From a virus, in the UHGV virus genome UHGV-1366828: a DNA stretch of 64,000 nucleotides, one strand, 5' to 3'. The translations under genes were made by a program, and so were the position numbers. Below are positions 16,464-36,952 of this stretch, in pieces; within the stretch, counting starts at the first letter, position 1; each line of letters starts with the position of its first letter. A model generated the notes under the pieces. That model worked only from the letters and a program-made list of their open reading frames with translations. It made no database searches and was not told the DNA's origin.

Positions 16464-17783
16464 TCACTTAGAATTGGCGCCTGTTTTTCTCTTAGAATCG
16501 GGGGACCGTTGACCTTCGCCCGCAAGAATAAAATCATACACATATTTCAAAGCTGCATAATGATTTTTCTTTGCTTGAAGAACCTGAAGGAACTGCTGCG
16601 CCTTTGCGCCACCCTTATCAGCGAGAATGTCCCGGCAAGCCTTTACCAGCTCTTCTTTAGAAGCTGCACCGTCAATTGCTTCCTTGTTGTCTAGAAGAAG
16701 CTTATTGATGCTGTTTCCTTTTTCAGACAAGTTAACTTCTTGAGCTTCTGTAAGAGAATTAGTTTTTAAAGTCCCGTAAATTCTAGTTGATTTACCAGCT
16801 TCGTTCTTTGTCATATAGTTGTAATTGAATCTTTCAGTAATGAATGATTTATTCTCATTAAGTGTGCCCGTAAGGGTAAATGCTTTACGACCTCTGGTAA
16901 TATTCTTATTCTCGCCAATGAAACGTAACTTGTTATTCTTTGTAGCAGTTTTTGCTTCAAAGACAAACTTTGTGGGCTTCATCTTACCAGAGTTGAACTT
17001 AATCAAACCTTCAACAACTAATGTATTTCCCTGTGAAGAAACGTCTGTTGTTTTATATGAACTCACGTTTTCATAAACGGCTTTAAGATACGCTTCTCCT
17101 AACTCATCAAAAGAATCTGAATCAAAATCTTCAACATCGTAGTCAACTTCATCTTCAGGCCAAGGACTTTCCTCAGTTTCCTCAATCGTGTCCGCTACTT
17201 CTGTTGGAACAGGAGCAAGAACTTCTGCTTCTTCTTCAGTATCTTTAACAGGTTCAGCTTCAATTGTAAGTTTTCCGTCATCATCAGCATCCAGTGTAAC
17301 CTTTTGATCTTCAGTAGCGACTTCTACGGTTTCAAATTCTTCTGTGAGTTCTTCGTCAACATGTTCTTCGGACTCTTTTTCTTCTTCAGAAGAGTCCTCC
17401 TTCTCATCTTCCTGTTCGTCTTCTTCGTCTTTTCCCTCTTCGAACGGACTTACAATACCAATTACTTTAAAGCCCTCGGAAGTGTAACAATAGGGGCATT
17501 CTTCCCCAACATTGACAAGCTCTTCTACGTCGTCCTTAACAATATCCTCCAGCTTTTTATATACCATGGAGTTACAAACAGGGCAGTGAAGAATTACTTT
17601 CCCGATATAAGTATCTTGCAATTCATCCTCAGTTTCCGCCTCTGGATCAATTACGTCTTGAGAGGGAGTACCGGGGTCTGCTAAAAGTTGCCCCATATCG
17701 TCAATGGAGTCAGTATTATATAGCGAAAAGTCCTCTTCCGTAAGAAAGTCTAATTTCTTGAAAGCTTCGCTCAGATAATTCAT
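16464..17783 (-). CDS. highly acidic protein with CxxC...CxxC zinc ribbon; candidate virion internal/ejection protein
   Basis: 439 aa. ~60-residue D/E tract (DEEDEQEDEKEDSSEEEKESEEHVDEELTEEFE). HCPVCNS...CPYCYT. N-terminus MNYLSEAFKKLDFLTEEDFS closely matches the N-terminus of the methyltransferase at 27441..28070. Confidence 0.5.
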   Translation of the reverse strand: MNYLSEAFKKLDFLTEEDFSLYNTDSIDDMGQLLADPGTPSQDVIDPEAETEDELQDTYIGKVILHCPVCNSMVYKKLEDIVKDDVEELVNVGEECPYCYTSEGFKVIGIVSPFEEGKDEEDEQEDEKEDSSEEEKESEEHVDEELTEEFETVEVATEDQKVTLDADDDGKLTIEAEPVKDTEEEAEVLAPVPTEVADTIEETEESPWPEDEVDYDVEDFDSDSFDELGEAYLKAVYENVSSYKTTDVSSQGNTLVVEGLIKFNSGKMKPTKFVFEAKTATKNNKLRFIGENKNITRGRKAFTLTGTLNENKSFITERFNYNYMTKNEAGKSTRIYGTLKTNSLTEAQEVNLSEKGNSINKLLLDNKEAIDGAASKEELVKACRDILADKGGAKAQQFLQVLQAKKNHYAALKYVYDFILAGEGQRSPDSKRKTGANSK

Positions 17784-17829
17784 TTATTAAATCTCCTCGT
17801 CTATTTATCCGAATAATTATCCGACGTCA

Positions 17830-18567
17830 TCAATCAACCGCATTGTAGAAAAGGGCTGTGTTTGACGACAACGTTTGTCTTAACTCTTGCAGCTCAGAGG
17901 TTCCTTCAGCTAGAATATCTCGACCGTCTTGCGTCCATATTGCATTCGACTGTGTGTACCTACTACGAACTCTTCCTGCTACAATCTTTGTTTTAGCTAC
18001 AGCCATCCGTATCAAAACATCCGTCCAATAATCTGAAGTGATTTCAGACACATCTTGATAGATTGGTATATATTCTACAGTTATATTACTTGGAGCATTA
18101 CTTGCAACATTTATATACAATTTTTGTGAGTCTCTGTCGTATATATATGCCAGATCCGTACTAGTCGTATTTCTCATCTGAAGGATAGTGTTATACGACA
18201 TGTAATTCAGCATATAATCCTGAAAGCCTCTCATGTTACCTGTTCCCGAGATTAACTGCCACTGTGCTGCTTGCATCGGATCTACAGCTTTTGTCAACGA
18301 TGTACTAGCCTCTCCGTACCCTTCTGTACGATAAACTCTAAATACATTGCTGACGTATATCTTCTGGTCATTAGTTTGCTTTGGATCCGATAAGTCAATA
18401 CAACGACTAAAAGGAATGGTTACAATCTTTGTACTGGTTATGTAGCGTTGTAATTCTCGTAGAGAGCTAGCTATGATGCTGTCTACAGTAGTTGGGGTTA
18501 ATTCTAATTCAAGTAGTTGACCTGTGAGCATCAATGTGACTTCGTCACGAACTTGATCCTGTGTCAT
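17830..18567 (-). CDS. hypothetical structural protein
   Basis: 245 aa ORF. Confidence 0.4.
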   Translation of the reverse strand: MTQDQVRDEVTLMLTGQLLELELTPTTVDSIIASSLRELQRYITSTKIVTIPFSRCIDLSDPKQTNDQKIYVSNVFRVYRTEGYGEASTSLTKAVDPMQAAQWQLISGTGNMRGFQDYMLNYMSYNTILQMRNTTSTDLAYIYDRDSQKLYINVASNAPSNITVEYIPIYQDVSEITSDYWTDVLIRMAVAKTKIVAGRVRSRYTQSNAIWTQDGRDILAEGTSELQELRQTLSSNTALFYNAVD

Positions 18568-18645
18568 TGATTATACTCACCTCACATCTTAACATATACG
18601 CTTATAGGGGCAAGGTATAACACTTGCCCCTTTGATATGTCTATT

Positions 18646-18816
18646 TTAAGTATTGATGTCAGTTCCTTCTACTTGAATGTGAACCTTATCTGCGTTGTCT
18701 TTATAGATGCATACATCGGGAGTTCCAGACGTTGGCATCTGGCTATTCTGGAACATAATGTTCAAGCACTCAACTTCAACACCGCTCACTAATTTCTTTC
18801 CTTCATATATAAACAT
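18646..18816 (-). CDS. hypothetical small protein (56 aa, below ORF-track cutoff)
   Basis: ATG at 18816 with AGAGGT 12 nt upstream; MFIYEGKKLVSGVEVECLNIMFQNSQMPTSGTPDVCIYKDNADKVHIQVEGTDINT; fills a 284 nt gap. Confidence 0.3.
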   Translation of the reverse strand: MFIYEGKKLVSGVEVECLNIMFQNSQMPTSGTPDVCIYKDNADKVHIQVEGTDINT

Positions 18817-18851
18817 ATGTCAAATACCTCTTATAAGTCTATTTTTGATTG

Positions 18852-19271
18852 TCAGGTTTCTGCAGCAGCTGTCACAGTAAACGTAACATCAACAGAATCA
18901 TTGTCATCTGAAACAGTGTAAATCCATGTGCCCGCTGTTGCATCTGCTGTTGCGGTCACAGTGATTTCATTACCACTGATGGTTTTAGTTAGCCCTGTAG
19001 ACGTTGATCCTTCAGCTTTCTTAATACACTTCAGGGTTCCTGTCACATTACTTGCTGTAAGTTTAACAGTACTTCCTCCGGCTGTAATATTTGCTGTTGT
19101 GGGAGTAACTTTGAGAGCTCCGTTAGTATCTAGAGCCTTATTCCCGATTAAAATTTCAACTTTACCGGATTCCTTTGTGAGAGTAATGTCAGGACTCGAT
19201 AAATCTAAATTTTCTTGTGCTCCTTGTTCTAAGATGAACATTAGGGCGCCGTCTTTTTCATATATGAGCAT
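18852..19271 (-). CDS. Ig-like (Big_2-type) domain protein, probable decoration or tail-surface protein
   Basis: 139 aa, Thr/Val-rich beta pattern 'TVKLTASNVTGTLKCIKKAEGSTSTGLTKTISGNEITVTATADATAGTWIYTVSDDNDSVDVTFTVTAA'. Confidence 0.45.
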   Translation of the reverse strand: MLIYEKDGALMFILEQGAQENLDLSSPDITLTKESGKVEILIGNKALDTNGALKVTPTTANITAGGSTVKLTASNVTGTLKCIKKAEGSTSTGLTKTISGNEITVTATADATAGTWIYTVSDDNDSVDVTFTVTAAAET

Positions 19272-20879
19272 TTAGGTTTCCTCTCTTTTCAGAAGAGCAT
19301 CAATTTCATTGTTTGCTCTGTCAATTCTAGCTTTTGAATTTTGATTTGCATCATCATAATACTTCTTTAGAGAATCAATTCGACTTTCGTATTGTGCTTT
19401 TAGCTTATTTATTTTAGCATCTTGTTCTGCTTGTGAATTGTCTACGAACTGTTGTGCTTCTTTTCTTCTCTGTAAAATGTCTTTCATGTTACGAACATTT
19501 TTTGTCATTTGCTGGTTATCAGCTATACGTTCCATTCGTTGATACTTCGTACTATTCCAGTACTCGTCATTATTAACTTGGTGTTCTCTTTCATAATCAG
19601 GAGCCGGGGAAAAGTAGTCACCTACAAACCGATTAGCGTTTTCTCCGCGTTCTGGGCGTTTTCTTGCGCGATCTGCATAATTGATTTTGTCAAAACGTCT
19701 GTAGATACCTCCTGTTTTTGAATCTATTCTGGGTACTACATCGTCTCTATTAAAGATATACACGTTATTATTAGGAATGTCGCGTCTTACTGAGCCAACA
19801 TTCTTTATATATGTGTCTCTTCCTAAATTGTATTTCTGTAATACTGCTTTCTCCTCGGGAGTTAGAGATGCGTTGGCTCTCTCTTGTGTCTTTCTAAAAA
19901 TCTGTTTTAGAATTTCAGAGTCATGTTTGTCTTCGTCTGACATTTCAGCTTCATTTAAAGAGTTCAGTTTTTCTTCAATAGCACGTCTAAGAGATTCTTT
20001 TCTTAGCAGCTTGTTAATTTTGCTGGTTGCATCAGCTACACCTTGCTGACCTCTTTCAGACTCTTTCTGTCTTTGCTCATCAGCATATGCCATCGCATCA
20101 TCGAATCTTCTGCGAGCATCAGCAACATTTCTTGCATAATTCAAATTGACATTATCAAGATCTTTCTGATTTTCTTTTCTAGATGCTAAGGCCGCTTTCA
20201 TATCTCTTACTGGCTGAGACATCTGTTTATTTACTGCAACACGGTCCTTTTCTACATCGGTTAAATCCGCATCTGCGCCGCCGTTTCCTGCAATTGTAGC
20301 CGGCCTGTTATGCTCCTTATCCCACTGGTCCTGACCAAATCTTCCGGTATTATCATGCGTAAATGTATTGTCCCCAAAAGTGTCAACATCCGTAACTGGT
20401 GCATAATGAGACACTTTACGATACGGACGATCTTGAGCGGGACCTTTTTCTTTACGCTTTCTGATAAAGTCCGCAATATTAGTTTCTTTGTTAACTTTAA
20501 CTCTGTCAAGATCCCCTGCTAAGGTACGAATCTGCCTGTTTAGTCCAGATCCTCTCTCATAATCAACATCATTATCTTTGATAGGAGTGATGTCCCTGGC
20601 ACCATTCCACCTCTTAGTTCTTTGTGGAAGTGTTAGATTATATTTGTCTGCAATATCTAATTCTTGAGGTGTCCACCTAATAGCTCTTCGTTTATCATAA
20701 CTAAAATCTCTAGCTTTTGAAAGTATCTGACGAAGCACTTCATTGTCTCTTCTGTCTTCATCAGACATAGTAGCTTCCTTAAGTGTATTCAAGATAGAAG
20801 TTATCTGATTAACTACGCTTTCTTGAAGAACGTTGAATTGGTTTAATTCAAATCCTTCGTTTAGAAATTTTAAACTCAT
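19272..20879 (-). CDS. hypothetical protein with internal tandem duplication
   Basis: 535 aa. Two homologous halves (MSDEDRRDNEVLRQILSKARDFSYDKRRAIRWTPQELDIADKYNL... vs MSDEDKHDSEILKQIFRKTQERANASLTPEEKAVLQKYNL...). N-terminus MSLKFLNEGFELNQF resembles the shared N-terminal motif. Confidence 0.5.
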   Translation of the reverse strand: MSLKFLNEGFELNQFNVLQESVVNQITSILNTLKEATMSDEDRRDNEVLRQILSKARDFSYDKRRAIRWTPQELDIADKYNLTLPQRTKRWNGARDITPIKDNDVDYERGSGLNRQIRTLAGDLDRVKVNKETNIADFIRKRKEKGPAQDRPYRKVSHYAPVTDVDTFGDNTFTHDNTGRFGQDQWDKEHNRPATIAGNGGADADLTDVEKDRVAVNKQMSQPVRDMKAALASRKENQKDLDNVNLNYARNVADARRRFDDAMAYADEQRQKESERGQQGVADATSKINKLLRKESLRRAIEEKLNSLNEAEMSDEDKHDSEILKQIFRKTQERANASLTPEEKAVLQKYNLGRDTYIKNVGSVRRDIPNNNVYIFNRDDVVPRIDSKTGGIYRRFDKINYADRARKRPERGENANRFVGDYFSPAPDYEREHQVNNDEYWNSTKYQRMERIADNQQMTKNVRNMKDILQRRKEAQQFVDNSQAEQDAKINKLKAQYESRIDSLKKYYDDANQNSKARIDRANNEIDALLKREET

Positions 20880-20948
20880 AAATAACTTTCTCCATTTAAT
20901 TTAATACGGTAGGGATTACTTATAGTAGTATATACAATATATCTGTTT

Positions 20949-21908
20949 TTACTCTAGTATCAATTGGTTGATGTAAGTTTTGTAATTTCCTACACCTTGT
21001 AACTGCCCTCCTACACTTATAATTTGATTTCCTGTAATGTCAGATAAATCCATGGTGTATGTAGTATCTGAGCTATTGAGTTGTACATACTTTGTGTATG
21101 TAGTATTGGTCGTAGAAGTATTACTTTGTCCTATCCCTACTAAGCCATAAGCGTTACCACTAGTGGTAGCATGACCTACAATGGTCAATGTAGAATACTC
21201 AGTCAGGTCAATTTCAGAAGAGTTAGCGCGGGCAGTGTACGTTCCGCTTCCCCTAACAACATAAAAGTATGCGTACAAATAACCATCAGAGTTCAGAGCA
21301 TACCCGTCTAAGCCGTTGTTTGTAAACGCTACACCGGCTGTACCATTGTTATAAACATAAAACTTTTCTTTCTTAGGAATCCACTCTCCGTTGACTTTAA
21401 GGTAAACCCCACTGGACTGTTGCCAAACTCCGTTTACCTTAACATACACAGCGTCTGCTAACTTCCATACACCGCCTACCTTAACATAAACTTCATTGGC
21501 AGTAACTTTTTCTGGCACAGTTAACGTAACGGAGCTTGCTGTATGCCCGCTTGAGCCGTCTTCCACCCCAGCACGTATTGTTGCCTCACTGTAAGATGCG
21601 GGAAACACTGCATACCAAGTAAATTTCAGACTGAAACCGTCACCTACGAGATATCTTTCTGAAGGAGACTCACTGTCTCCAGCCCATGCATGAAAGTAAA
21701 ACTGTTGAGTAGCATTGTAACCGGCGTAATTGGATGTGTACAACTTTACCCGAACGCACAGCTCATTATTCCGTAACCTTGCAATGGCGCATGCCGAATA
21801 AAACCTATACCCATAACTACCCTTTTTATATCTATAAACCACTGTACCACTAGTTTCTGTAGACCATGAAACTACATTACTTGGTTCAGTTGTCTTCCAT
21901 GTTGGCAT
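20949..21908 (-). CDS. hypothetical fibre-associated protein
   Basis: 319 aa, beta-rich, downstream of the tail fibre gene. Confidence 0.4.
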   Translation of the reverse strand: MPTWKTTEPSNVVSWSTETSGTVVYRYKKGSYGYRFYSACAIARLRNNELCVRVKLYTSNYAGYNATQQFYFHAWAGDSESPSERYLVGDGFSLKFTWYAVFPASYSEATIRAGVEDGSSGHTASSVTLTVPEKVTANEVYVKVGGVWKLADAVYVKVNGVWQQSSGVYLKVNGEWIPKKEKFYVYNNGTAGVAFTNNGLDGYALNSDGYLYAYFYVVRGSGTYTARANSSEIDLTEYSTLTIVGHATTSGNAYGLVGIGQSNTSTTNTTYTKYVQLNSSDTTYTMDLSDITGNQIISVGGQLQGVGNYKTYINQLILE

Positions 21909-21919
21909 AATAACACTCC

Positions 21920-23521
21920 TTATGTAGTAGGGTATTTAATATATATGTCTCCGTTATTTCCTGTCGAATTGTCAGGGACATCTGTGCCTTCTAGTATTGG
22001 ATGATATTCTTGTTGGTTTATGTATAACACACCCTCATTTACTCCAATCATCCATTTGTTCGTAACATAGGAAAATATACCGTGCCAAGAGTTATTTGAC
22101 TCGGGGCCTACATACATCGAAACAGACGTGTCAGGATTCGTACTGTGTACTCCCGGCAGATAATTAGAGTTGATATACAAAATATGTTTATGTAGTTCTC
22201 CGTCGGGAGAGATCTGCATCAGCAATATACTATCATCCTTATTATTATTATTTGCAGCTTGATAAAACTTATAGCAGCCACCAGTTTCATAGAAGTCTAT
22301 GCTATTATGGTCATGGTACCCGAAATCTATTGCATGGTTGTATCCGTCCGCACCTTCATTACGAAGTCTTCTAGCAGTAAGATACCCCGTATCGTTGTCT
22401 CCCGTACTCAGGTGAGGAGCCACGATAGATCCCGTTGCTGTACCTCCGGAAAGGGGCAGAAACATATTTCCTTCGACGATTAACAATGGCTCAGTTCCGC
22501 GCTTGCGGATTGTTATTGAATCACCCACACGCGTAAGTTCGATACTTCCGCCGGTAAGCTCGAACCACTCATTGTTCATTGCGTATACGACATTCATGTC
22601 ATTCAGCCATGAAAACGTGAATTTTCCAGCATACATATACTTAACAACGGTAAAGGAAAAGTCGGCGGGCAGAGCATTTAATTCGGTCAAGCCGCAGGTA
22701 AATAGGACGTCATTTGCAGATGTGTCGGCATAAACTATGCCCCCGTTGAAAGGTACTACATTTACAAATGTATAATTGCTATTGATCGACCAAGAAGGAG
22801 GCGTTTTTGCATCGTTTGCAAATTTCGCTCGAGTTACAATACCATCAGCAATATTATTCGTACCAACAGCCCCTGCATCAGAAGAGAGAGCACCCACATC
22901 TGCAGCGCCAAGATTTACTTCGCCCGTTTTCCCATTTACACTTGTAACAGGAGCAGACTGTAATGCAGTGTCTGCTTTTCCAAGGGACGCTTGAACTGCA
23001 TCCGATAAATCAGTTTTCGGAATTCCGCCCGCAGGTTTTGAATAAGTTCCAGTATTTTTTGTAAACCCTTTTGCAGCAACATCTTCTTCAAGAGTGGCTT
23101 TATCCTGTTTTCCACTTATGTCTTGATGTTGAGTAAGAAAGCCGGAGTCATTCTGTAACTCACTTGTCTTTGAAGGAATCGTGGGCTTATCGCTTAAATC
23201 AGTATAACTCCCACTAAAATTTGATGTTCCTGCACCTATTGCAGCTCTAGCCCCCGCAGCAGTACTTGCCCCTGTTCCGCCTGAGTCAAGGGGTAGTGGT
23301 GTTGTTTTAAAGGCTGCTCTAATAAATGTTTCAATCTTTGATTTTATTTCTGACCACAGAGTCTTCTTTGTTACTCCTGCACTTTTATCAAACTGTACAA
23401 GATAATCGTTGTCTTGTAATTCAGTTGTGATTGTGGCATACTGAATCTTACCTTCTTTATCAGACAAGTCTGTATAGACTACGGGGTCGTAATCTGAAGA
23501 TCTTTTACCTAAATATTTCAT
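21920..23521 (-). CDS. tail fibre protein
   Basis: 533 aa; repeated 'TDLSDKPTIPSKTSELQNDSGF...KTDLSDAVQASLGKADTALQS' motifs typical of phage fibre shafts; Gly/Ser/Thr-rich. Confidence 0.55.
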   Translation of the reverse strand: MKYLGKRSSDYDPVVYTDLSDKEGKIQYATITTELQDNDYLVQFDKSAGVTKKTLWSEIKSKIETFIRAAFKTTPLPLDSGGTGASTAAGARAAIGAGTSNFSGSYTDLSDKPTIPSKTSELQNDSGFLTQHQDISGKQDKATLEEDVAAKGFTKNTGTYSKPAGGIPKTDLSDAVQASLGKADTALQSAPVTSVNGKTGEVNLGAADVGALSSDAGAVGTNNIADGIVTRAKFANDAKTPPSWSINSNYTFVNVVPFNGGIVYADTSANDVLFTCGLTELNALPADFSFTVVKYMYAGKFTFSWLNDMNVVYAMNNEWFELTGGSIELTRVGDSITIRKRGTEPLLIVEGNMFLPLSGGTATGSIVAPHLSTGDNDTGYLTARRLRNEGADGYNHAIDFGYHDHNSIDFYETGGCYKFYQAANNNNKDDSILLMQISPDGELHKHILYINSNYLPGVHSTNPDTSVSMYVGPESNNSWHGIFSYVTNKWMIGVNEGVLYINQQEYHPILEGTDVPDNSTGNNGDIYIKYPTT

Positions 23522-24037
23522 TTAACTTTTCACTCCATATATAAGGCAGTACCAATAAGTTCCTATAAACGAGATATACCCTGTCGCATTAACCACTCCA
23601 TTTTCAACATTTATGTATGAATTACTGTTTGTATTCGATTCGATGATCCACACATCTCGTATGACACCACCAGCTGATGCAACAGGTGCCGCATTACTGA
23701 AATACCCGAACGATTTTTTAGAAGTAAAAAACAACTGCTGAATACTAGCAGGAATATCTTCCCGAACATTCCAGTAATTTGTACACAGGAGATATCCTGC
23801 CAGTATATTATCTGATTTAGGCAGTGTCCATGTTGTAGCTGAGGTATTGAACGTTACGGTTCCAGTAAGTATCTCCGTGAAGGGTGCTACATCTGCAACA
23901 TTCAAGGAAGAGATCTCTTGTGGCATCTGATTCAATGTCATTGTAGAAGTTTTTCCGGACTTACTACGTATTGCATCAGCAACGGACGTTAATTTACTGT
24001 CGAATGCTGTTGAATCTATTGCTTTGTCAATTGCCAT
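23522..24037 (-). CDS. hypothetical fibre-region protein
   Basis: 171 aa ORF abutting the fibre gene (stop/start adjacent). Confidence 0.4.
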   Translation of the reverse strand: MAIDKAIDSTAFDSKLTSVADAIRSKSGKTSTMTLNQMPQEISSLNVADVAPFTEILTGTVTFNTSATTWTLPKSDNILAGYLLCTNYWNVREDIPASIQQLFFTSKKSFGYFSNAAPVASAGGVIRDVWIIESNTNSNSYINVENGVVNATGYISFIGTYWYCLIYGVKS

Positions 24038-24087
24038 TAGTAGTTACCCCCCCCCGTGTATACTGGTAGCTGATTTAGCATTGCTTG

Positions 24088-24798
24088 TTATACTGCTGCG
24101 GGTGTTTGTACGGGTCCGATTATTATAACTCTGAATTCTCCTGCGGGAATATTCGTACCGGAAGGGGCTCGAAAAGCATATGTGGAGATGCTCATATCAT
24201 AATACAACCCAACAGTAACACTGTAGTCAGTGGGGGAAACTTTTACGTCACCTAGTACCTGTTCCCCCGTTGACTTATATATCGAAACCAATACATTGTT
24301 AGAGCTGAACCCGTGGTCAGACGCAGGAATTGTCCAAGTAAAATAACCATAGTCATCTCCAAAAGTTTCAGGATTCTCCGCAGAATATACCGTACAAGGA
24401 ACCAACGTACCCGTAATTGTTTCCCCCTTTGCATTATGTGCTGTTGTTCCTAGCAGTAATGTTTCTGGCGATACTGTGTCAGAGGTTAAGTCCAACACAG
24501 TAACGCCGTTTAGATCTACTTTATTCACATTGGAGGCCGGAAGTAGCATTGCATTACTTCTTAGAAATTGAAGTAAGCTACCCACAGGATAGTCATCCAT
24601 CTCGATAATTTTATACCCATCGTTTGTCCACCCTGATGAAGCGCTGTATGCAACATATTGACCGTCTGAAACATATAGTAATGTATTAGCGGTTACACTG
24701 ATTTGTTGAAATGTTTTTCCATTGCTCCTAAATGGAATATAATAACTACCTGTAGGAGATAACGTTAAAACATCTTTAAACTTCCATTTGTAAGACAA
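24088..24798 (-). CDS. hypothetical structural protein
   Basis: 236 aa ORF. Confidence 0.4.
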   Translation of the reverse strand: MSYKWKFKDVLTLSPTGSYYIPFRSNGKTFQQISVTANTLLYVSDGQYVAYSASSGWTNDGYKIIEMDDYPVGSLLQFLRSNAMLLPASNVNKVDLNGVTVLDLTSDTVSPETLLLGTTAHNAKGETITGTLVPCTVYSAENPETFGDDYGYFTWTIPASDHGFSSNNVLVSIYKSTGEQVLGDVKVSPTDYSVTVGLYYDMSISTYAFRAPSGTNIPAGEFRVIIIGPVQTPAAV

Positions 24799-24804
24799 GC
24801 GTCA

Positions 24805-25395
24805 TCACGCTCCGATCTTCAGTGTCTGACCTCCAGCTTCGTTGTCAGTGTAAGTAACAGGAATTGCATTGACTGTGACAGATGACAGGTAGTTGTAATC
24901 AGGACTGTCAGGTGTAACCTCTTGAGCTTCAAATGTTGGGGTTACAGTTTTTGCTTGAGGCTTTGCATCTTCTGTTCCTGACATTGTACCCGTTACACCA
25001 AGGATTGCAATACCGTCACGAATATTTTCAGGAATGATCTTTGCAGCTTCTGTCGGGTCAATCTGAGCCTTACCGGAGCCATCGTGGAAGCCCATCGGAA
25101 TTGTTACAGGCGTTGCCTTCTTTGTTATGTTAAGTGTCTTAGCGCCGTTGTTCGGCATCGTACCGGTAATTTTTGCACCGGCCTTGTAAGCTGTTTTACC
25201 TAAAAGAATCTCTGCTGCAGTAGCAGTAGCGTCTTTCGTATCAGCGTCAAACGTACTAGTACCTACAATAGGTGCGCCTGACTTGTCGTGAGCCTTTATA
25301 CCTTTTGCAAGTTTTTCAGGTGTAATATCGTCTTGCGTAAGGTCAAATTTTACTTCTTCGCCAACAATAAGTTTATTGATATATGTATTTGGCAT
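24805..25395 (-). CDS. hypothetical structural protein (Ig-like/fibre-like)
   Basis: 196 aa; Gly/Thr/Ala-rich beta pattern. Confidence 0.4.
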   Translation of the reverse strand: MPNTYINKLIVGEEVKFDLTQDDITPEKLAKGIKAHDKSGAPIVGTSTFDADTKDATATAAEILLGKTAYKAGAKITGTMPNNGAKTLNITKKATPVTIPMGFHDGSGKAQIDPTEAAKIIPENIRDGIAILGVTGTMSGTEDAKPQAKTVTPTFEAQEVTPDSPDYNYLSSVTVNAIPVTYTDNEAGGQTLKIGA

Positions 25396-25396
25396 A

Positions 25397-25672
25397 TTAG
25401 TCTACTCCTAATATAAGTGTTTTTCCCCCAGCGTCATTTCCGACTTCATACTGGGGAATCTTTAATACAGTTATGTCATCTTTAGGAACTGTTCCCTTTG
25501 TTGGTAATTCGATATCTTGATATAACTTAGGTGTTACTTCATATGGACCTTTGTAAGGTAACCCTGTACCGGTTACTAATGCAGCTTGAAACTCAAAATC
25601 TAATGGGTTTATTGGTGTTGCTTCAAACGATATCTTCGGCGTATTTATCTCAAAAGAGACAACAGGTCTCAT
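25397..25672 (-). CDS. hypothetical protein
   Basis: 91 aa, overlaps upstream gene by 4 nt. Confidence 0.35.
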   Translation of the reverse strand: MRPVVSFEINTPKISFEATPINPLDFEFQAALVTGTGLPYKGPYEVTPKLYQDIELPTKGTVPKDDITVLKIPQYEVGNDAGGKTLILGVD

Positions 25673-25977
25673 ATAATCTCCTTAGATAACGATACGTCAA
25701 CATCTATTTTTTGAGTAGGAGTTTTAAACACATCGCCATTCTCAAACTTTATTCGAGCCTGAGCCTCTACAATTCTAGGAAGCGAAAACGTCTCTTCCTG
25801 TGTTACAGGGAAGAAAAACGTACCGTCCGAAAACGAAACTTCATCCGGATACATCCGTGTTGTATCGTGCAATGTAAATTCAATCTTTTCAACATTTGAA
25901 ACATCTAGTGGTTCATCGTTGAATTTAATTGTCATTGCTATGTTATATTGGTCTCCCTGAGAAATTCTACCGGACAT
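25669..25977 (-). CDS. hypothetical protein
   Basis: 102 aa ORF. Confidence 0.35.
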   Translation of the reverse strand: MSGRISQGDQYNIAMTIKFNDEPLDVSNVEKIEFTLHDTTRMYPDEVSFSDGTFFFPVTQEETFSLPRIVEAQARIKFENGDVFKTPTQKIDVDVSLSKEII

Positions 25978-26024
25978 CGCATCACCTCCTTAATGTTATA
26001 TTACTTCATCGTAAAGCAACACAG

Positions 26025-26555
26025 TTATTTGTTCTTGTCCCACTTCTTGTCATACCAGGAAGGAGCATCGTATTCAACTAGCCCTGATTTCAATAACGCG
26101 ATTTCTGTGACTGTCTTTCCGCCGACACTAAATTGAACAAGAATGCCATCATAGCCCTGTTCTCTAGCTATCTTGTGATAAAATACTTGTAAATCATCCA
26201 GACCCGTGGACATTCTATAGAAAGAATCTTTATACTTAATATATACAAAATTTCCTTCTTTAGTACGTTCACGAGCAATTATTCGTGTTCCAAGAATATC
26301 GTTCAAGTCATTTCCTAAATACACACTGGTTACATCAGGCTGTTTTCCAAGGTCTATGAGATTGACTTTATCTAAATCTATTACAGAGGTTAACAGGGCT
26401 CCTTCGTCATCTGTACCGTCTTGCCAATATGATGTAGCCTCGTCTTTGGAAACAGTCCACCACTCAGCTCTTCCGTCCCCTTCTACATTCGGCTGTAGAC
26501 CTTTAATAACCCCTCTATAGACTGGAATTTTTTCTTCACGTAGTAAAAATCTCAT
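26025..26555 (-). CDS. hypothetical protein
   Basis: 176 aa; overlaps the SWIM protein gene by 4 nt. Confidence 0.4.
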   Translation of the reverse strand: MRFLLREEKIPVYRGVIKGLQPNVEGDGRAEWWTVSKDEATSYWQDGTDDEGALLTSVIDLDKVNLIDLGKQPDVTSVYLGNDLNDILGTRIIARERTKEGNFVYIKYKDSFYRMSTGLDDLQVFYHKIAREQGYDGILVQFSVGGKTVTEIALLKSGLVEYDAPSWYDKKWDKNK

Positions 26556-27415
26556 TCGGCGTTCTCCGAATCTGAAATTAGATTATCAAAATCAATCTGT
26601 CGTTTCATTGGCCTGTTCTGCTTTTGGAATCTGTACTCGTTACCCTTCTGGAACTGTGTCTTAGTTCTTGCCCACTTGTTGGCAACATTAAGTAGATCTT
26701 TATCTGCACTAACTGAGATGTCGGGTTGTCCTTCTTCTGGTTTCTCCTCAGGCGGCTGTAGTTGTAGCTGAACATCGCCCGTATACTCACGTTGATATAT
26801 CGCAGGATATATTACATCTGCATACATGTTAGGGTAATGTTGTTCCATGTATCTGATGTAATTAAAGATTACAGAAGCTACTTTAGTTAGCCAACTATTA
26901 TTTGACAACACTAACAGTATATGTTTGCAACCCCTGCCCTTGGTGTCATTTGGGTTTGTAATATTAGAAGGCCTAGTTTCCTTGTCTCCTACAATAATGT
27001 CATGCACGCTTAGATAATAGCCAAATCTATACTGAAAATCGGGACAACTACATCTAACGTAAACATTCTCCCCGTTAAAGGAGCTTACAAGAGCTCTGAT
27101 AACACACCGTAGGTTTAATACGTCATTGTTTGCTGCTAGTTGTTTGTGTATTTGGTCAAGTACTTCTCCAAAACTGATTCGAACAATATAATCGTTAGTT
27201 TCTCCTCTTACTTTTACGTCTACGTCAAGAATGTTATTCTGGAAGAACTTATTCATATCAATGGAATTCATTTCTCTTACAGAATTAGCAACTCTGCTAT
27301 GTAGACGTCTTTCATAACGATTCTTTCCACGAAACTGATTTTCAGGAGCATAATTATCTGCGTGTTTTGAGTTTGAAATCAGCTCTTGTCTCTTATCTTC
27401 TAAAAGTTTGTTCAC
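26552..27415 (-). CDS. SWIM zinc-finger domain protein
   Basis: 287 aa; 'RCSCPDFQYRFGYYLSVHDI...GRGCKHILLVL' fits the SWIM CxCx(n)CxH signature (C-x-C-P-x-F ... C-K-H-I). Confidence 0.55.
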   Translation of the reverse strand: MNKLLEDKRQELISNSKHADNYAPENQFRGKNRYERRLHSRVANSVREMNSIDMNKFFQNNILDVDVKVRGETNDYIVRISFGEVLDQIHKQLAANNDVLNLRCVIRALVSSFNGENVYVRCSCPDFQYRFGYYLSVHDIIVGDKETRPSNITNPNDTKGRGCKHILLVLSNNSWLTKVASVIFNYIRYMEQHYPNMYADVIYPAIYQREYTGDVQLQLQPPEEKPEEGQPDISVSADKDLLNVANKWARTKTQFQKGNEYRFQKQNRPMKRQIDFDNLISDSENAE

Positions 27416-27440
27416 AGAATAATTATACCTCCTTCTTTAA

Positions 27441-28070
27441 TTATTTTGTAGCTACGATTAGTTTTCCTTTTACTTCAACATTATCTTGACCAAACACTTC
27501 GCCAATCTCTTCAGCGTAGTCCTCAAGCTTCATAAATGTTTGATACTTATCTCCGCCAGTAGGTCTACCTTGACCTGTACCAGCACCCGCACCACAACCA
27601 ACATATACATCAAAATAAGCAGTTCCACCAGGCTTCAAAATTGAGTAAATATTTGCTATGATTTCATTTACTCTAATGTCTTTTTCTTTTACAACATTCA
27701 GAACATTAGCGCAAGTTGCTGTGTCAGTGTGTCCGCCGACTTCGTCGAGTTTGTCAAGAGAAGCACTCTGCTCTTCTGCACTTTGATTATACTTATCAAA
27801 CCCAATATAGTCTACGCCCTTTTCAGCTAAGAAATTAGCAATCTGAGCCTGAGTTGTTGCTTCCCCACAACCGTAGTCAAAATTAACAGTCCCGGGCTTC
27901 CAGTTACGAACGTTCTTGAATAGAGCAGGGACTCTACCCATTCCTTTATTTGCTACGCCGTTACCATGAGCAGTTGACTTGGAAGTGAACTCCTGTTCCT
28001 TGTCATAGGAAAATCTTCCTTCTTCCAAGGCCTTTAGCTTGTCGAAAGCTTCACTAATAATATAGTTCAT
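27441..28070 (-). CDS. class I SAM-dependent methyltransferase (substrate unknown; no DPPY/NPPY)
   Basis: 209 aa; motif I 'NFDYGCGEA', acidic post-I 'YIGFDKY', 'CANVLNVV', 'LKPGGTAYFDV'. N-terminus MNYIISEAFDKLKALEEGRFS shares the N-terminal motif. Confidence 0.65.
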   Translation of the reverse strand: MNYIISEAFDKLKALEEGRFSYDKEQEFTSKSTAHGNGVANKGMGRVPALFKNVRNWKPGTVNFDYGCGEATTQAQIANFLAEKGVDYIGFDKYNQSAEEQSASLDKLDEVGGHTDTATCANVLNVVKEKDIRVNEIIANIYSILKPGGTAYFDVYVGCGAGAGTGQGRPTGGDKYQTFMKLEDYAEEIGEVFGQDNVEVKGKLIVATK

Positions 28071-28092
28071 TTATGACCTCACACGTTAACAA

Positions 28093-28410
28093 TCAAGAAT
28101 TATAGAATAGTCTACGTAGCTGTGCCTTAACAAGGGCAGTAACAAGCTGGTCAGCAACTGAAAATTGATCCTTGTAATCTGCTGTGTCATAATCCTCTTT
28201 GGCCCACTTTGCGTCATATTCACGCACCAAGGTCTGAATGTCTTCAGGGTCAACATAAAGGCCGGGGCTGTCAAGAAATTCCGAAACCTGGTCCTCATAA
28301 AAGTCTTCAAGAATGCCGTAAACCTTATTACGAGCCTGTCGATAATCCTTTTCAAGCTCCTCAGCTTCATTCAGTTTACGAAAAGATTCATTTACTAATG
28401 CTTTATTCAT
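28093..28410 (-). CDS. small acidic protein sharing the N-terminal motif
   Basis: 105 aa; MNKALVNESFRKLNEAEELEKDY...; the overlapping alternative frame 28086..28370 is rejected. Confidence 0.45.
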   Translation of the reverse strand: MNKALVNESFRKLNEAEELEKDYRQARNKVYGILEDFYEDQVSEFLDSPGLYVDPEDIQTLVREYDAKWAKEDYDTADYKDQFSVADQLVTALVKAQLRRLFYNS

Positions 28411-28415
28411 ATTAT

Positions 28416-29153
28416 TTACTCCTCAAATAGATTTATAAACTTCCCTGTGTATATGTAATGTTCAAGGGACAATTTTCTTGACAAACAATTCGTTAACGCT
28501 TCCTTCAATAAAGAAAGCTCTCCTCGGTCACGTAACGTTTTAAAGATTTCATTCCCTCTACCGTATTCTCCTTCAATAGAAATTGAATTCTTTCGCATTA
28601 AGTAGAGGGCATCTAAAACATCAGTAATCTGCTCGTAGTCCTTTGACGTAATTGCCGCGTGAATTCTTTCAGTCCAAGCATCTAATTCTTGTGTTAGATC
28701 TCGCTTCTCAATCGTAATTGGTTTGGGTTCTTTCACCCACTTATTTCTACGAATAGAATAAATACCGTTAGATTGAACGGACGAATGTAAATCTTCAACA
28801 TAGAGTTCAACAGGAATTTCTTTTATCTTTATGTCAAATTCTTTATTGAAAGCTGTCTTCTTTAGATTAAAGACTAACGTCTGTATATCTTCAGGAACAC
28901 CTTCTGTTAGTTCAGTGTTAACAATTAAGTGAACATCGATGTCGGAATGCTGTGTATAGTTGTAAGATGCATTACTTCCTACCAAAACTACATCTACAAT
29001 ATGCATCGGTATTTCAACATACTCTTCAAAATTGTCTGCAATTTCAAGTAGCTTTTGTCTAACTTCAGGTATCAATGTGTTATCTTTCCATAACTTTGGG
29101 TTTAAAGTTTCATGCAACTGAAAATCTTCAAGTACGTTCTTCATATGTCTCAT
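28416..29153 (-). CDS. Pol-beta superfamily nucleotidyltransferase (KNTase/ANT(4')-like fold)
   Basis: 245 aa; 'VVLVGSNASYNYTQHSDIDVHLIV' matches the hG[GS]x9-13Dh[DE]h motif. Size and N-terminal helix resemble kanamycin nucleotidyltransferase. Start overlaps the upstream small ORF by ATGA. Confidence 0.6.
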   Translation of the reverse strand: MRHMKNVLEDFQLHETLNPKLWKDNTLIPEVRQKLLEIADNFEEYVEIPMHIVDVVLVGSNASYNYTQHSDIDVHLIVNTELTEGVPEDIQTLVFNLKKTAFNKEFDIKIKEIPVELYVEDLHSSVQSNGIYSIRRNKWVKEPKPITIEKRDLTQELDAWTERIHAAITSKDYEQITDVLDALYLMRKNSISIEGEYGRGNEIFKTLRDRGELSLLKEALTNCLSRKLSLEHYIYTGKFINLFEE

Positions 29154-29419
29154 AAAAGATCCGCCAATCTAATAATGTCTGAACTAGAAATCTTATTATT
29201 ATGGTGAAGAGCAGTATGTGCGCTGCTTCCGTGTTCAGAGCTTTTTCTTACCAGACTAAGATTAGTTATACTATAATTAGAGTGGTCTTTATCTTCATGA
29301 TGTAACACCCAATCATCAGGGTCAATTGAAACTCCTGTAAGATACTGTACTAAAGCACACACTACTTTTTTGGCTTCGGTCTGCCCTCTAAATCCTTCTT
29401 CTAGTAATTTAAATCTCAT
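29150..29419 (-). CDS. small protein translationally coupled to the nucleotidyltransferase
   Basis: Probable start at internal ATG 29419 (MRFKLLEEGFRGQTEAKK..., 89 aa); the longer 135 aa ORF would overlap the QueH-like gene by ~150 nt. Confidence 0.35.
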   Translation of the reverse strand: MRFKLLEEGFRGQTEAKKVVCALVQYLTGVSIDPDDWVLHHEDKDHSNYSITNLSLVRKSSEHGSSAHTALHHNNKISSSDIIRLADLL

Positions 29420-29939
29420 TCTTTGAATACTCACACCCACAATAATTCTGTTGATATAAATTATACTTCTCGCACAGTTGCAATGATCTAGGAAACAGAT
29501 ATCCGAAATCAAACGGCATATACATAACTCCCACAGACCCGCCAACAGCGGTTCCAATACTGTTTATAACAGCTGAATCTTTATACGGACTGATTGTTAA
29601 TGTAGTTGAAAAATATCCAAATCCATTATTGTTTGCATATATTGCAGCACCCTTCAATCTCTGACCGATACATACCTTGCATCTTTTTCCACCCTCGGGT
29701 TCATTACTTAAAGAAGAACATGCGTTATAATATTCCTCCGGATAGAAATCTGCAATAACTACCGGTACATTATAAAGTTTACCGAGTCGGATAAGCTCGT
29801 CGGATCTTTTATAGTATTCAATTTCATCTGTAATACAAGGATTGTAATAATACAACGTTATATCAAAATACTTTGAGTACTCATCAATAACAGCACTACT
29901 ACAGGGTGCGCAACAAGCATGAAGTAATAATTTATCCAT
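29409..29939 (-). CDS. queH: QueH-family (DUF208) epoxyqueuosine reductase homolog
   Basis: 176 aa from ATG 29939 (GGAGG 11 nt upstream). 'MDKLLLHACCAPCSS...YYNPCI...EPEGGKRCKVCIGQRL...TTLTISPYK...LYQQNYCGCEYS' matches conserved QueH Cys motifs (LLLHxCCAPCS, EPEGGxRC, NYCGC). Confidence 0.65.
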   Translation of the reverse strand: MDKLLLHACCAPCSSAVIDEYSKYFDITLYYYNPCITDEIEYYKRSDELIRLGKLYNVPVVIADFYPEEYYNACSSLSNEPEGGKRCKVCIGQRLKGAAIYANNNGFGYFSTTLTISPYKDSAVINSIGTAVGGSVGVMYMPFDFGYLFPRSLQLCEKYNLYQQNYCGCEYSKNEI

Positions 29940-29956
29940 CTGTTCAGTTCCTCCGA

Positions 29957-33108: not shown

Positions 33109-34131
33109 TCAGGCCTTGATCTTACCCGCTACCAGGAGGCTAGGATTGAGAAGCTTCAGGTCGTACATCGTACTCCAGCCTTGTGTGGTTCCACCATCGG
33201 CGAACTGAAGCAGCTGAGTAGGAACAACGCTCATGTAAGGAGCATAAACAGCGGCGGAGCTCATTAAATCGCTGCCGTTGACACCTACAATGAACTTACC
33301 AGCTTCAAGAGCAGGAGAAACGAACACCTTAAGAGAACCGAGAGTACCAGCGAAGTAAGGACCGTTAACATCGCTCACAGGAGCAGGAGTCCAGTCACGA
33401 ATGAAAGCAAACACCGGAAGAAGGTCGCTGGCGCAAATCATGTAGTTAGGAACAAATTTCTTTGTACGGTCGTACACTACGCGCTTGGCATCTTCAACAG
33501 TTTCCATGAATCCCTGATAGTGCTCTGTTTTGGAAACACCTACATTAGGAGTCTTGCTCCATTCAAGGGTTGTGTCGGTCGGGGTATTGTCGATAAGAAG
33601 CTGAACAACTTCTGTGTCGATTTCATATTCGAGCTGACCAACAGCCTTCTCTGCAAGCTGGTCACCAAGGTCGAAACCGTAGTCGGTCTTAGCCTGGAAA
33701 GCAGCAATCTGAGAGTAGTAAACAGCGATACGACGAGCCTTCGCAACAAGAGCGATATTCTTCATCTCTGCCTTGAGCATCGGAAGGTCGTTCTGAGGAA
33801 CAACTACGTTGTCGTAGTAATAAGCTACACGGTCAGTGGCAACAAGAGTTGTGGTAATTGTCTTGCCGTCAGCGCCAACATTCACATAAGTGGGATCACC
33901 AGTTGCGTGAGTAACCTTAACGTCGTACTTAACGCCGTCCTTCTCAAACGCGCCCTTAACAACAGGAGTCCAGGAAAGAGCAAGAGAAGCACCAGCCGTC
34001 GGAGTTTCAACAACACGGTCACCAGTGTAATCAGCATCGACATCGCCGAGAGCGAACGGGCTGTTCAGAAGCTTACCAGCAGTGGTCTGACCCTTGGTCT
34101 TACCAGCAGTATACTCAATGTAAGTTATCAA
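33109..34131 (-). CDS. major capsid protein (putative)
   Basis: 340 aa; follows the protease/scaffold-like gene in head-module order; markedly GC-richer, codon-optimised composition typical of the most abundant virion protein; strong hairpin downstream (33040-33070). Confidence 0.55.
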   Translation of the reverse strand: MITYIEYTAGKTKGQTTAGKLLNSPFALGDVDADYTGDRVVETPTAGASLALSWTPVVKGAFEKDGVKYDVKVTHATGDPTYVNVGADGKTITTTLVATDRVAYYYDNVVVPQNDLPMLKAEMKNIALVAKARRIAVYYSQIAAFQAKTDYGFDLGDQLAEKAVGQLEYEIDTEVVQLLIDNTPTDTTLEWSKTPNVGVSKTEHYQGFMETVEDAKRVVYDRTKKFVPNYMICASDLLPVFAFIRDWTPAPVSDVNGPYFAGTLGSLKVFVSPALEAGKFIVGVNGSDLMSSAAVYAPYMSVVPTQLLQFADGGTTQGWSTMYDLKLLNPSLLVAGKIKA

Positions 34132-35120: not shown

Positions 35121-35411
35121 TTAAAATCCAGACATAGAGCTCATCGGGTGGACAATTACTAGCTCATTAGCAATTAAGTTAGGAAGAGCAACAGTTGTAA
35201 GGTTCAGGCAGAATTTCTTATAGAGTCCGAGATCTGAACGCTGTGTGCCAGAAGCAGCATCAAAAGCTTCAGAAAGGAACTTTGAAGTATTGTCAAGCAC
35301 CTTAGCAATAACTAGCTTCTTGTGGTTATCCATCTTCTCGCCGTTGTGAGTTCTGCCGTAAACGGATTCAGAAACTGCAAGACGACCTTTGTATTGTTCT
35401 AAAAGATTCAT
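35121..35411 (-). CDS. hypothetical head protein
   Basis: 96 aa ORF between the scaffold-like gene and a 380 nt non-coding stretch. Confidence 0.35.
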   Translation of the reverse strand: MNLLEQYKGRLAVSESVYGRTHNGEKMDNHKKLVIAKVLDNTSKFLSEAFDAASGTQRSDLGLYKKFCLNLTTVALPNLIANELVIVHPMSSMSGF

Positions 35412-35431: not shown

Positions 35432-36952
35432 TTATTTAAGTCGTGCTAGAGACAGTAAGTCATCGTCTACTAAATCGTCTTGAACGAAAGGAATTATTTC
35501 CTTCTTAGGAGACGTAATCTTAGCACTTAACTTCTCCTGTAGTTGCATTGACTGAAATGGTAACTTACTTAAGTTAAGATTTACAGACTGTAGACTTTCG
35601 CATACAGAATCAATATCGTCAAATGTGTAACTATCAGGCAATCTATTTAAAATTTCATTCTTCGATACACCAAGTCTCACTGATTGCGATTCAACATAAC
35701 GGTTAACCGCACCAGCGGCTATCTTCTTGTACTTTTCAACAAGATTGTTTGAAGCACTTAACTTCTTGGTGTATTCTGTCTTCTTTTGAGCTAAGTCTTT
35801 CTGAACTGTCGAAAGTTTTTCAGTTAAAGAAGTGATTTCTTTACTGCTATCTTCATTAGCAATCTTCAGCTGTTCGGTTAGTTCCGCAACTTTACTTCTG
35901 CTCGAAGTAACTGATTCAGCTAACGCCTTAGAACGTTCAGTTAAACTATTCTTAGACTTAATAGCTTCATATTTAGCGGAAGCTAACTGTTCGTTTAACT
36001 GACTAACTTGCTGCTCATAATTACTTAACTTCTCTTGTAGAGAAACAACTTTCTTCGCTTCCTCTGATAACTTCAGAATCGCTTGTTTGTACTTAGTCAT
36101 CTTTTCGTTACATGACGCTTCTTTAGTATAACTAACTGACAACTTCTCCTGTAACTCAATTAGCTGCTGTTCTTTCTCTTTATTTTCTTTCAAGGAGGCT
36201 TGAAGCTGTTCTAACAAATCTGCTTCGGTAGTATCGACTGCAACGCCTTCGTTAACAACTTCTTTATAATTAACAGAAGAAGGTTTTTCTACATTTTCTT
36301 CTTCTGGGGTATATTCAATCTGGAGAGTATTCAATGTCTCCTGCATAATTTTTCTGTCTGACGCAGACGCTTTTTCTAGAGATTCCTGTAATGCCTTTTT
36401 TAACGGAATAGTGGAATTTCCAACAGACTCCGTAACGTATTCCATACGAGCAGCCTTTACTGCGGGTAGAAGAACAACGTCAAAGCAACTAAAATCATAT
36501 GTGTCTTCGTCTACAGATTCATTTCCATCAATATCTGTTGACACATCTCCTGAACCTCTAGAGGAGATTCCCATCTTATATCCATAGTCGCAAAGGGTCT
36601 TTAAGATGCGACCATTCGGAGTGTCAAGAATGTCAAAAGAGCTAATCAGCTGCCCTTTATTATTCTTCTGAGGAGGATTGGGCATACAAATAGCAATCTT
36701 CTCCATGTCAATCTCTTGACGGTCAGCAGGGTGACCAAGTTCTCCGAAATATCCACCATTTTCAAATGTTTCCTGAGCTATAGGACTGTTAAAAACATTC
36801 TCCCAAAGCTGTTCAGAATATTTTCTTCCATTACGAGTAGGATTTATAATGTCAGCAACTGGTCCGGACAGACGACCTAATATAGGGCTGCCTTTTTCGC
36901 TGACTAGAGCTGATCTGTCAAAGGTCAACTCTTCGTTTGACTTTCTATCCAT
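35432..36952 (-). CDS. putative prohead protease / scaffolding fusion protein
   Basis: 506 aa. N-terminal ~150 aa globular region, then a long heptad-rich coiled coil (LQEKLSNYEQQVSQLNEQLASAKYEAIKSKNSL...). Position between portal region and capsid gene. Protease assignment is not motif-verified. Confidence 0.4.
   Translation of the reverse strand: MDRKSNEELTFDRSALVSEKGSPILGRLSGPVADIINPTRNGRKYSEQLWENVFNSPIAQETFENGGYFGELGHPADRQEIDMEKIAICMPNPPQKNNKGQLISSFDILDTPNGRILKTLCDYGYKMGISSRGSGDVSTDIDGNESVDEDTYDFSCFDVVLLPAVKAARMEYVTESVGNSTIPLKKALQESLEKASASDRKIMQETLNTLQIEYTPEEENVEKPSSVNYKEVVNEGVAVDTTEADLLEQLQASLKENKEKEQQLIELQEKLSVSYTKEASCNEKMTKYKQAILKLSEEAKKVVSLQEKLSNYEQQVSQLNEQLASAKYEAIKSKNSLTERSKALAESVTSSRSKVAELTEQLKIANEDSSKEITSLTEKLSTVQKDLAQKKTEYTKKLSASNNLVEKYKKIAAGAVNRYVESQSVRLGVSKNEILNRLPDSYTFDDIDSVCESLQSVNLNLSKLPFQSMQLQEKLSAKITSPKKEIIPFVQDDLVDDDLLSLARLK

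Follow-up and report, generated by a model that had tools for sequence, protein, structure and literature searches.

Capsid-targeting tags have been demonstrated experimentally mainly in T4 and P1. The internal proteins of T4 carry an N-terminal capsid targeting sequence (CTS) of 10-19 residues that is removed by gp21 (PMC9026906), and the S77-type proteases of T4, phiKZ and SPN3US cleave after Glu in a three-residue motif (PMC5694885). The SPN3US paralogues gp53 and gp54 have an identical 15-residue N-terminus followed by a diverged remainder (PMC5694885). In P1, at most the first 30 residues of DarB, a large antirestriction protein, suffice to send it and also reporters into the capsid, and the Dar proteins have no consensus N-terminus in common (PMC9024508). 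ArdA and ART-PolyVal are domains of the 'polyvalent proteins', which are predicted to be packaged in the capsid and injected with the DNA (PMC5512222); packaging of such anti-defence proteins has long been predicted, and no sequence signal has so far been defined for it. Here we describe a short N-terminal peptide, referred to as the tag, which is encoded at the start of otherwise unrelated genes in a stretch of 64,000 nucleotides (the window) of the virus genome UHGV-1366828. The phage is a very abundant (more than 1500 protein clusters), uncultured gut myovirus of about 135-142 kb with a T4-type head. The motif is real and conserved across the whole clade on non-homologous proteins. We consider it fairly probable that it would act in the T4-type prohead as a capsid-targeting or propeptide tag specific to this lineage, resembling the CTS in function without being homologous to it.

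A shared N-terminal peptide on unrelated proteins

The genes of the window are all encoded on the minus strand. A sequence-only reading of the window had singled out four open reading frames (ORFs) with related N-termini, and all four are present as quoted: an acidic Zn-ribbon protein of 439 amino acids (aa) at 16464-17783 (MNYLSEAFKKLDFLTEEDFSLY), a 209-aa S-adenosylmethionine (SAM) methyltransferase (MTase) at 27441-28070 (MNYIISEAFDKLKALEEGRFSY), an acidic 105-aa protein at 28093-28410 (MNKALVNESFRKLNEAEELEKDY), which is kept in close relatives, and a basic 535-aa protein with an isoelectric point (pI) of 9.0 and two tandem repeats at 19272-20879 (MSLKFLNEGFELNQF). The bodies of these proteins had been described as unrelated, and pairwise BLASTP at 1e-3 indeed detects no similarity among the four. 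Their placement in the head/neck region is correct in rough terms only. The 439- and 535-aa genes flank the gene for a gp13-like neck protein (17830..18567; phrog_211; orthologues in relatives carry PF26809, Phage_T4_gp13). The MTase and 105-aa genes lie between the capsid gene and tail-fibre-like genes.

The tag reads MNYLSE-AFKKLDFLTE-EDFSLY in the 439-aa protein (17718..17783), where hyphens mark the ends of two L-x-E sites, and MNYIISE-AFDKLKALEE-GRFSY in the MTase (28005..28070). The 105-aa protein starts MNKALVNE-SFRKLNE-AEELEKDY (28342..28410) and the leader of the 535-aa protein is MSLKFLNE-GFELNQFNVLQE-S (20817..20879). The respective cores are YLSE-AF, IISE-AF, LVNE-SF and FLNE-GF; the last fits the common core pattern [YFIL][LIV][SN]E-[AGS]F and is bridged to the MTase-type tag by the protein MSVRILNEGFDKLFNSLNEE of a relative (L017). 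A second L-x-E closes the tag 10 residues past the first Glu (LTE16, LEE17, LDE16), so that the unit comprises 15-20 residues and is of a size comparable to the T4 CTS.

The strength of the motif was judged on the first 25 residues of the 83 gene-like ORFs of the window. In local BLOSUM62 alignment the 439-aa protein and the MTase reach a score of 47 against a background of 3403 pairs of window N-termini with a mean of 14.6 and a standard deviation of 3.7, which places this pair about 9 standard deviations above background; the runners-up score 33 (MTase with the 105-aa protein), 32 and 31. An independent profile, built from 28 orthologues of the 439-aa protein from other phages only, gives the MTase N-terminus 18.9 bits, and none of 9010 shuffled N-termini attains 10 bits. 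With the same profile the 105-aa N-terminus obtains 7.0-7.4 bits, a level at which about 0.8 chance matches are expected per 901 N-termini, and the 535-aa family obtains 5.4-5.8 bits with 3.5 chance matches expected, so that its long motif is not significant. Leave-one-out profiles from the MTase and the 105-aa protein recover the 439-aa protein and those from the 439- and 105-aa proteins recover the MTase, but the 439-aa protein and the MTase together fail to recover the 105-aa protein. Significance against shuffled N-termini, a check set beforehand, is thus present for the 439-aa protein and the MTase, marginal for the 105-aa protein and lacking for the long motif of the 535-aa protein; the first two are solid members, the third is a marginal one and the fourth belongs by its core only.

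Real genes of the window contain nine instances of the pattern [LIVM]xE[AGS]F, of which five fall within the first eight residues and one is the capsid site discussed below. An HNH-like protein of 89 aa (29150..29419) starts MRFKLLEE-GF, a weak and possibly chance match to the core, and its long motif is at chance level. The internal segment YLSEGFELGR at 56892-57536 is part of a NUMOD-type homing-endonuclease repeat and unrelated to the tag.

Divergent relatives were reached via homologues of exon 1 of the major capsid protein (MCP) and via alignment of the gp13-like neck protein, the latter route yielding 64 loci of about 20 kb at 43-100% identity. The gene directly after the neck gene starts with the tag in 53 of 61 loci (consensus M(S)xYL[TSN]EAFKxLxxL[ND]E[ED]xF...), and most of the loci lacking it there contain tag variants or an inserted gene. 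The 439-aa family is hypervariable and ranges from 364 to 1363 aa; its members keep the tag, the acidic linker, the Zn ribbon and the C-terminal domain and freely exchange the middle. When 66 loci (784,000 residues) were translated in six frames, 70 of the 74 profile matches of at least 8 bits started at an ATG, the other four being capsid sites and a terminase N-region. Per residue, the relaxed core pattern is 15 times as frequent within the first 14 residues as in the rest, and many copies in the rest coincide with capsid sites or fall at junctions between domains. Further carriers of the tag are the 535-aa family, another family of 584 aa and several proteins 116-490 aa long; altogether it is found on at least six families and co-occurs strictly with S77 proteases and gp23-type heads in the sampled clade. 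A tagged 490-aa protein (L051) contains an ArdA antirestriction domain (40.3 bits) with a copy of the core, KLTE-SFDD, just ahead of it, and a 1363-aa member of the 439-aa family (L080) contains an ART-PolyVal ADP-ribosyltransferase domain (78.5 bits). The N-terminal profile scan beyond the window, likewise set as a check beforehand, consequently finds the tag clade-wide, specific to N-termini and on several non-homologous proteins.

Two further arrangements were noticed in relatives. The gene of the 439-aa family is split in some of them (L006, 30-1794; L030 and L031, downstream of 10783), its C-terminal helical domain forming an ORF of its own that starts MKFK...NSP..LKESL. In a close homologue of the MTase (P0252), the first half of the tag is N-terminal and is separated from the second half by an insert of about 90 aa, a single case which suggests that the first half has to be terminal.

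T4-type head proteins and the predicted capsid maturation site

The prohead protease encoded in the window (506 aa, 35432..36952) belongs to the T4 gp21 family (PF03420, Peptidase_S77, 35.7 bits at a cutoff of 27; phrog_207) and continues into a C-terminal half that forms a long coiled coil and resembles a scaffold. BLASTP against T4 gp21 aligns GELGHP with GELNHP and GISSRGSG with GVSSRGLG, the motifs that surround the catalytic His and Ser. The portal (38834..40753) is T4 gp20-like (PF07230, Portal_T4, 150.8 bits). The MCP is gp23-like and encoded by exon 1 at 35121..35411 (phrog_138) and an exon 2 region at 33109..34131; the spliced protein matches PF07068 (Gp23) with 100 bits, and its best matches in the PDB are T4 gp23. 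A group I intron (Rfam RF00028, 106 bits; 34868-35133, minus strand) interrupts the MCP gene and carries an ORF for a GIY-YIG/NUMOD3 homing endonuclease (34158-34742), and a separate 'exon 1' ORF of about 90-100 aa is widespread among relatives.

At the level of sequence, the first half of the tag reproduces the conserved MCP segment FL(N/S)E-AF. In the window this segment is FLSE48-AF (35262..35279), the predicted maturation cleavage site, which has the same core as the tag; BLASTP aligns FLSE48-A with FLTE65-A of T4 gp23, the known maturation site, and mature T4 gp23* has 456 aa, that is 521 minus 65. The segment is nearly invariant in 120 homologues of MCP exon 1 with 50-100% identity ([FYLW][LIM][NSTK]E[AS][FY], consensus KFLNEAF). 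Furthermore, when a tag profile made from eight sequences was run over 217,000 residues, the best matches outside the members were capsid sites. The very N-terminus of the MCP, MNLLEAYKKRLAVSES, has the same 10-residue spacing between Glu residues, but it obtains less than 1.4 bits with the family profile and a likeness to the tag is therefore not claimed despite its striking look.

In the T4 genome (NC_000866), the head-core proteins without exception begin with a short peptide that closes in [LI]xE, and several N-termini can be compared: MKTYQEFIAE-A in ipII and ipIII, ...ITE-A in ipI, MAKINELLRE-S in gp24, MLKEQLIAE-A in gp22, MEGLIE-A in gp67 and MLLIPE-T in gp68, to which the gp23 site ...GSFLTE65-AEIGG can be added. 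These sequences and the tag have only a loose pattern in common, namely aromatic residues and Glu with an [LI]xE end.

The distribution of [LIV]xE sites provides hints of proteolytic processing. The 535-aa protein has just five such sites, three in the leader (ending at residues 8, 20 and 35) and two at the repeat junction (303 and 310). Each of its repeats begins directly after LN(T/S)L(K/N)E-A(T/E)MSDED, the junction LNSLNE-AEMSDED being encoded at nucleotides 19941-19961, and the body outside leader and junction contains none where 4.6 are expected (P=0.007). This pattern would fit a substrate whose two halves are separated by cutting and have to withstand the protease everywhere else. The 439-aa family shows a surplus of ES[LFI][KNR]E linkers in its variable middle parts, with 15 copies where 0.6 are expected, and Ser and Ala are enriched there after [LIV]xE. 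The scaffold-like half of the protease is itself enriched in [LIV]xE (16 against 8.9 expected). The same was seen in an acidic 380-aa protein encoded upstream of the terminase (43891-45033; start MKIRKLTE-N), which has 17 sites against 8.3 expected and is a candidate for an additional prohead-core or scaffold protein.

Capsid targeting weighed against other roles

Since the tag holds the predicted cut site of the T4-type head protease of the phage, it is most likely an address tag for capsid loading. The sequence-only reading had likened the pattern to capsid-targeting sequences, and this comparison has gained indirect support from the T4-type head machinery, the MCP-type site within the tag, its clade-wide N-terminal specificity and the ArdA and ART-PolyVal cargo in relatives, a classic kind of early-injected protein. 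Packaging and cleavage of the tagged proteins are what we infer from these sequence features. The tag would form a short helix, bind the core of protease and scaffold during prohead assembly and thereby bring the attached protein inside; the protease would then cut after one or both Glu residues of the tag and free the cargo within the shell, and the cargo would leave with the DNA at infection.

Like the CTS of T4 IPI, IPII and IPIII and the head-core propeptides, the tag is short and lies at the very start of unrelated proteins. As in T4, it is accompanied by a protease of the gp21 family and a capsid of the gp23 type, and it ends, like the cut site of the capsid protein itself, in a hydrophobic residue, any residue and Glu followed by a small residue (FIAE-A and FLTE-A in T4, YLSE-A and FLSE-A here). 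It differs from the CTS in its length of about 16-20 aa, its two candidate sites and its lack of homology to MKTYQEFIAE; moreover, protease and scaffold form one polypeptide here, unlike in T4, and T4's small basic internal proteins contrast with candidate cargo that consists of large multidomain proteins and an MTase, with ArdA and ART domains in relatives. With SPN3US, phiKZ and 201phi2-1 the phage has in common an S77-related protease, and several head proteins of those phages carry N-terminal propeptides, as which the tag may serve here. The cleavage motifs of those phages are A/S/G-x-E and their propeptides are mostly longer than 100 aa, whereas position P3 here is L, I or V as in T4. In contrast to the paralogues gp53 and gp54 of SPN3US, the proteins that share the short tag are not paralogous. 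P1 DarB sets a precedent for packaged anti-defence cargo with an N-terminal signal, although P1 uses a different head system and homology is not to be expected. As with the polyvalent proteins (Iyer et al. 2017), members of the 439-aa family and their neighbours in relatives carry ART-PolyVal and ArdA and are encoded among virion genes, but the work on polyvalent proteins defined no packaging signal.

A further known leader is of the Prp/L27 type, which is found on capsid and scaffold proteins of Firmicutes phages such as 80alpha, has the form ...LNLQ(F/H)(F)A-(S/A) and is cut by the host protease Prp. The tag contains no such sequence, its invariant residue being the Glu before A/S/G-F, and an assignment to this type was rejected.

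Candidate cargo encoded in the window are the 439-aa Zn-ribbon protein and the MTase. The former has a pI of 4.3 and 23% D+E and is laid out as tag, acidic linker, Zn ribbon (CPVC...CPYC), variable middle and conserved C-terminal beta/helical domains. Unlike the polyvalent proteins, it has no recognisable effector domain in Pfam, PDB and fold searches, which returned no match. Its AlphaFold2 (AF2) model is poor, with a predicted local distance difference test (pLDDT) value of 45.7, and a Foldseek search against BFVD returned sequence relatives only. The suggestion that it might be a DNA mimic is not supported, as there was no match to ArdA or anything else and the protein is simply acidic. The 209-aa protein is a class I SAM-dependent methyltransferase according to its Pfam profile (Methyltransf_23, 30.2 bits at a cutoff of 27), the confident Rossmann fold of its AF2 model (pLDDT 86.9) and its Foldseek neighbours, which are small-molecule or peptide N-/C-methyltransferases and do not include DNA methyltransferases. 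Residues 2-17 of its tag are modelled as a helix with a pLDDT of about 60, below the confidence of the enzyme core. The 535-aa tandem-repeat protein is probably cargo as well, possibly cut into two halves, and the 105-aa protein is perhaps cargo. Because ArdA and ART-PolyVal are found on the same tag in relatives, the cargo resembles an anti-defence arsenal with exchangeable items. Whether a whole abundant clade of gut phages loads such an arsenal into the capsid via one portable tag modelled on the MCP site is a question on which we are nearly evenly divided, leaning slightly towards no; we are just as tentative about its make-up, in which a DNA mimic (ArdA), a toxin domain (ART-PolyVal) and the SAM methyltransferase would be joined by large carriers that resemble polyproteins and are cut at linkers of the ESLKE type.

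Several observations weigh against capsid targeting, and some of them would suit other roles of the peptide. The T4 CTS (MKTYQEFIAE / MKTFKEF...) has no sequence homology to the tag, and GenBank phages gave no match when queried with the region, with the 439-aa protein or with a relative of 1014 aa; no phage relative there carries these proteins. A whole-library profile search with three N-termini, too insensitive for the diverged orthologues found later, yielded the strong motif only in the same three families. Its output consisted of orthologue fragments of these families and of two leucine-rich-repeat proteins (P0121, P0128), which were discarded as spurious since the repeat unit PESFAQLTQLTELDLS mimics the tag pattern, a pitfall for short-motif searches. 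The bodies of the MTase, the 105-aa and the 439-aa proteins are not depleted in [LIV]xE. Finally, both the location of the genes of the 439-aa family between neck genes and the conservation of its two ends would also fit an external structural role. The peptide would then be an uncleaved assembly anchor that docks hypervariable neck-, collar- or whisker-like proteins and accessory proteins on the gp13-like neck or portal. The position of the main carrier family directly after the neck gene (in the 53 of 61 loci mentioned above), its conserved ends and variable middle and an acidic protein in the same slot of Bacillus phage HSE3 are in line with such an anchor, which we nevertheless regard as unlikely: it leaves unexplained why the core is identical to the internal maturation site of the MCP and why the tag ends in L-x-E, why MTase, ArdA and ART-PolyVal proteins are tagged and why cleavage-type sites cluster at domain junctions.

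Doubts of another kind arise from the MTase family, the homologues of which in other phages have other leaders and lie in early or anti-defence, non-structural neighbourhoods. In addition, an EAF-like segment may be ancestral to the N-region of this family, in which case the tag of the MTase could partly be shared by descent. The peptide could thus be a short helix that was inherited or spread by recombination at gene starts and has some other role, its likeness to the MCP being coincidental. We consider this quite unlikely, and rate no higher the roles it would imply, namely oligomerisation, binding to a common partner from host or phage, or marking for degradation or regulation. In its favour, leaders of MTase homologues elsewhere are clade-specific and sometimes common to neighbouring genes: an MTase homologue and the small genes next to it start MKIYIRS/MKTYIKS in L024 (10001-12449) and MRFKLVES/MKFRLIED/MKFKVINED in L025 (8235-11019). 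By window scoring, however, the 'MRFKL/MKFKL' and 'MKIYI/MYRYI' leaders in other phages are at noise level, and their likeness could be due to composition or represent other lineage-specific leaders. A coincidental helix also conflicts with the strict co-occurrence with S77 proteases and gp23 heads, the match to the invariant MCP site and the occurrence on six or more families. The pattern is, moreover, generally common, as [LIV]xE is found near the N-terminus of 20 of the 83 window genes (24%). Together with the frequent MN and MK starts of this genome and the chance-level long-motif matches of the 535-aa and HNH-like proteins, this frequency could suggest an artefact of AT-rich N-termini or a conserved translation-initiation or RNA element, but such an origin is extremely improbable in view of the scores of the 439-aa protein and the MTase against background and shuffles. 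At the nucleic acid level, 6 of 13 residues that are identical between the two motifs are encoded by different codons, and conserved residues have undergone many synonymous changes in orthologues, which argues for conservation of the protein and against a recent copy of DNA. The DNA upstream of the tagged genes shows no similarity, and their start regions fold no better than shuffles. A DNA- or RNA-based explanation was rejected on these results, and the constraint therefore acts on the peptide.

Neighbouring genes and significance

The MTase is degenerating in three relatives (P0122, P0124, P0125): one copy has an in-frame deletion that leaves just the tag and the C-terminal 13 aa, another is frameshifted, and in a third odd ORF the N-terminus of the MTase is joined to a capsid-like C-terminus of 19 aa. 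Such decay indicates that the MTase is dispensable. In the wider MTase family, a conserved I-x-E ahead of the QEFTS core was rejected as a cut site because it is not strictly Glu.

Next to the MTase gene, a SWIM zinc-finger protein of 287 aa (26552..27415) has the conserved N-terminus (M/V)NKLLE-DKR; its orthologues in relatives keep the LLEDKR start and sit beside tagged genes, and its status as cargo is uncertain. It is part of a run of six consecutive genes (29419 to 26025) for the HNH-like protein of 89 aa, a nucleotidyltransferase, the 105-aa protein, the MTase, the SWIM protein and a 176-aa protein, in all of which an [LIV]xE ends at residues 6-9 (P~0.01). With such a site in 24% of genes we take this run as a hint only.

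Between the capsid gene and the tagged genes, a homologue of the epoxyqueuosine reductase QueH (29409-29981; PF02677, 184.7 bits) hints at 7-deazaguanine or queuosine-related chemistry in the phage. Two large paralogous ORFs downstream of the capsid gene (29957-31342 and 31457-32959) have their C-terminal halves in common, one of them matching DUF7487 with 109 bits, and look like selfish or homing-type insertions; similar genes occupy the same place in L021 and L022. Signatures of intein splicing in the terminase region are weak in the window (42476-43066, minus strand) and clear in the relatives L017-L022. Just upstream of the terminase region, two relatives encode large ART-PolyVal proteins (L018, 1-36; L020, 1-2411), which are candidates for further packaged effectors. 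The window also contains two phage tRNA genes, tRNA-Val(TAC) at 63162-63238 and tRNA-Tyr(GTA) at 63297-63383.

A recognisable tag that is tied to a recognisable protease site links the work on capsid targeting with that on polyvalent proteins. If the proposed role is true, it would provide a sequence rule for predicting proteins that are injected with the DNA, including the injected proteome of uncultured phages, and the predicted new N-termini could be searched for by metaproteomics. Antirestriction (ArdA), ADP-ribosylation and methylation activities would then arrive in the host pre-made together with the genome, and the tag would offer a handle for engineered protein delivery into gut Firmicutes.

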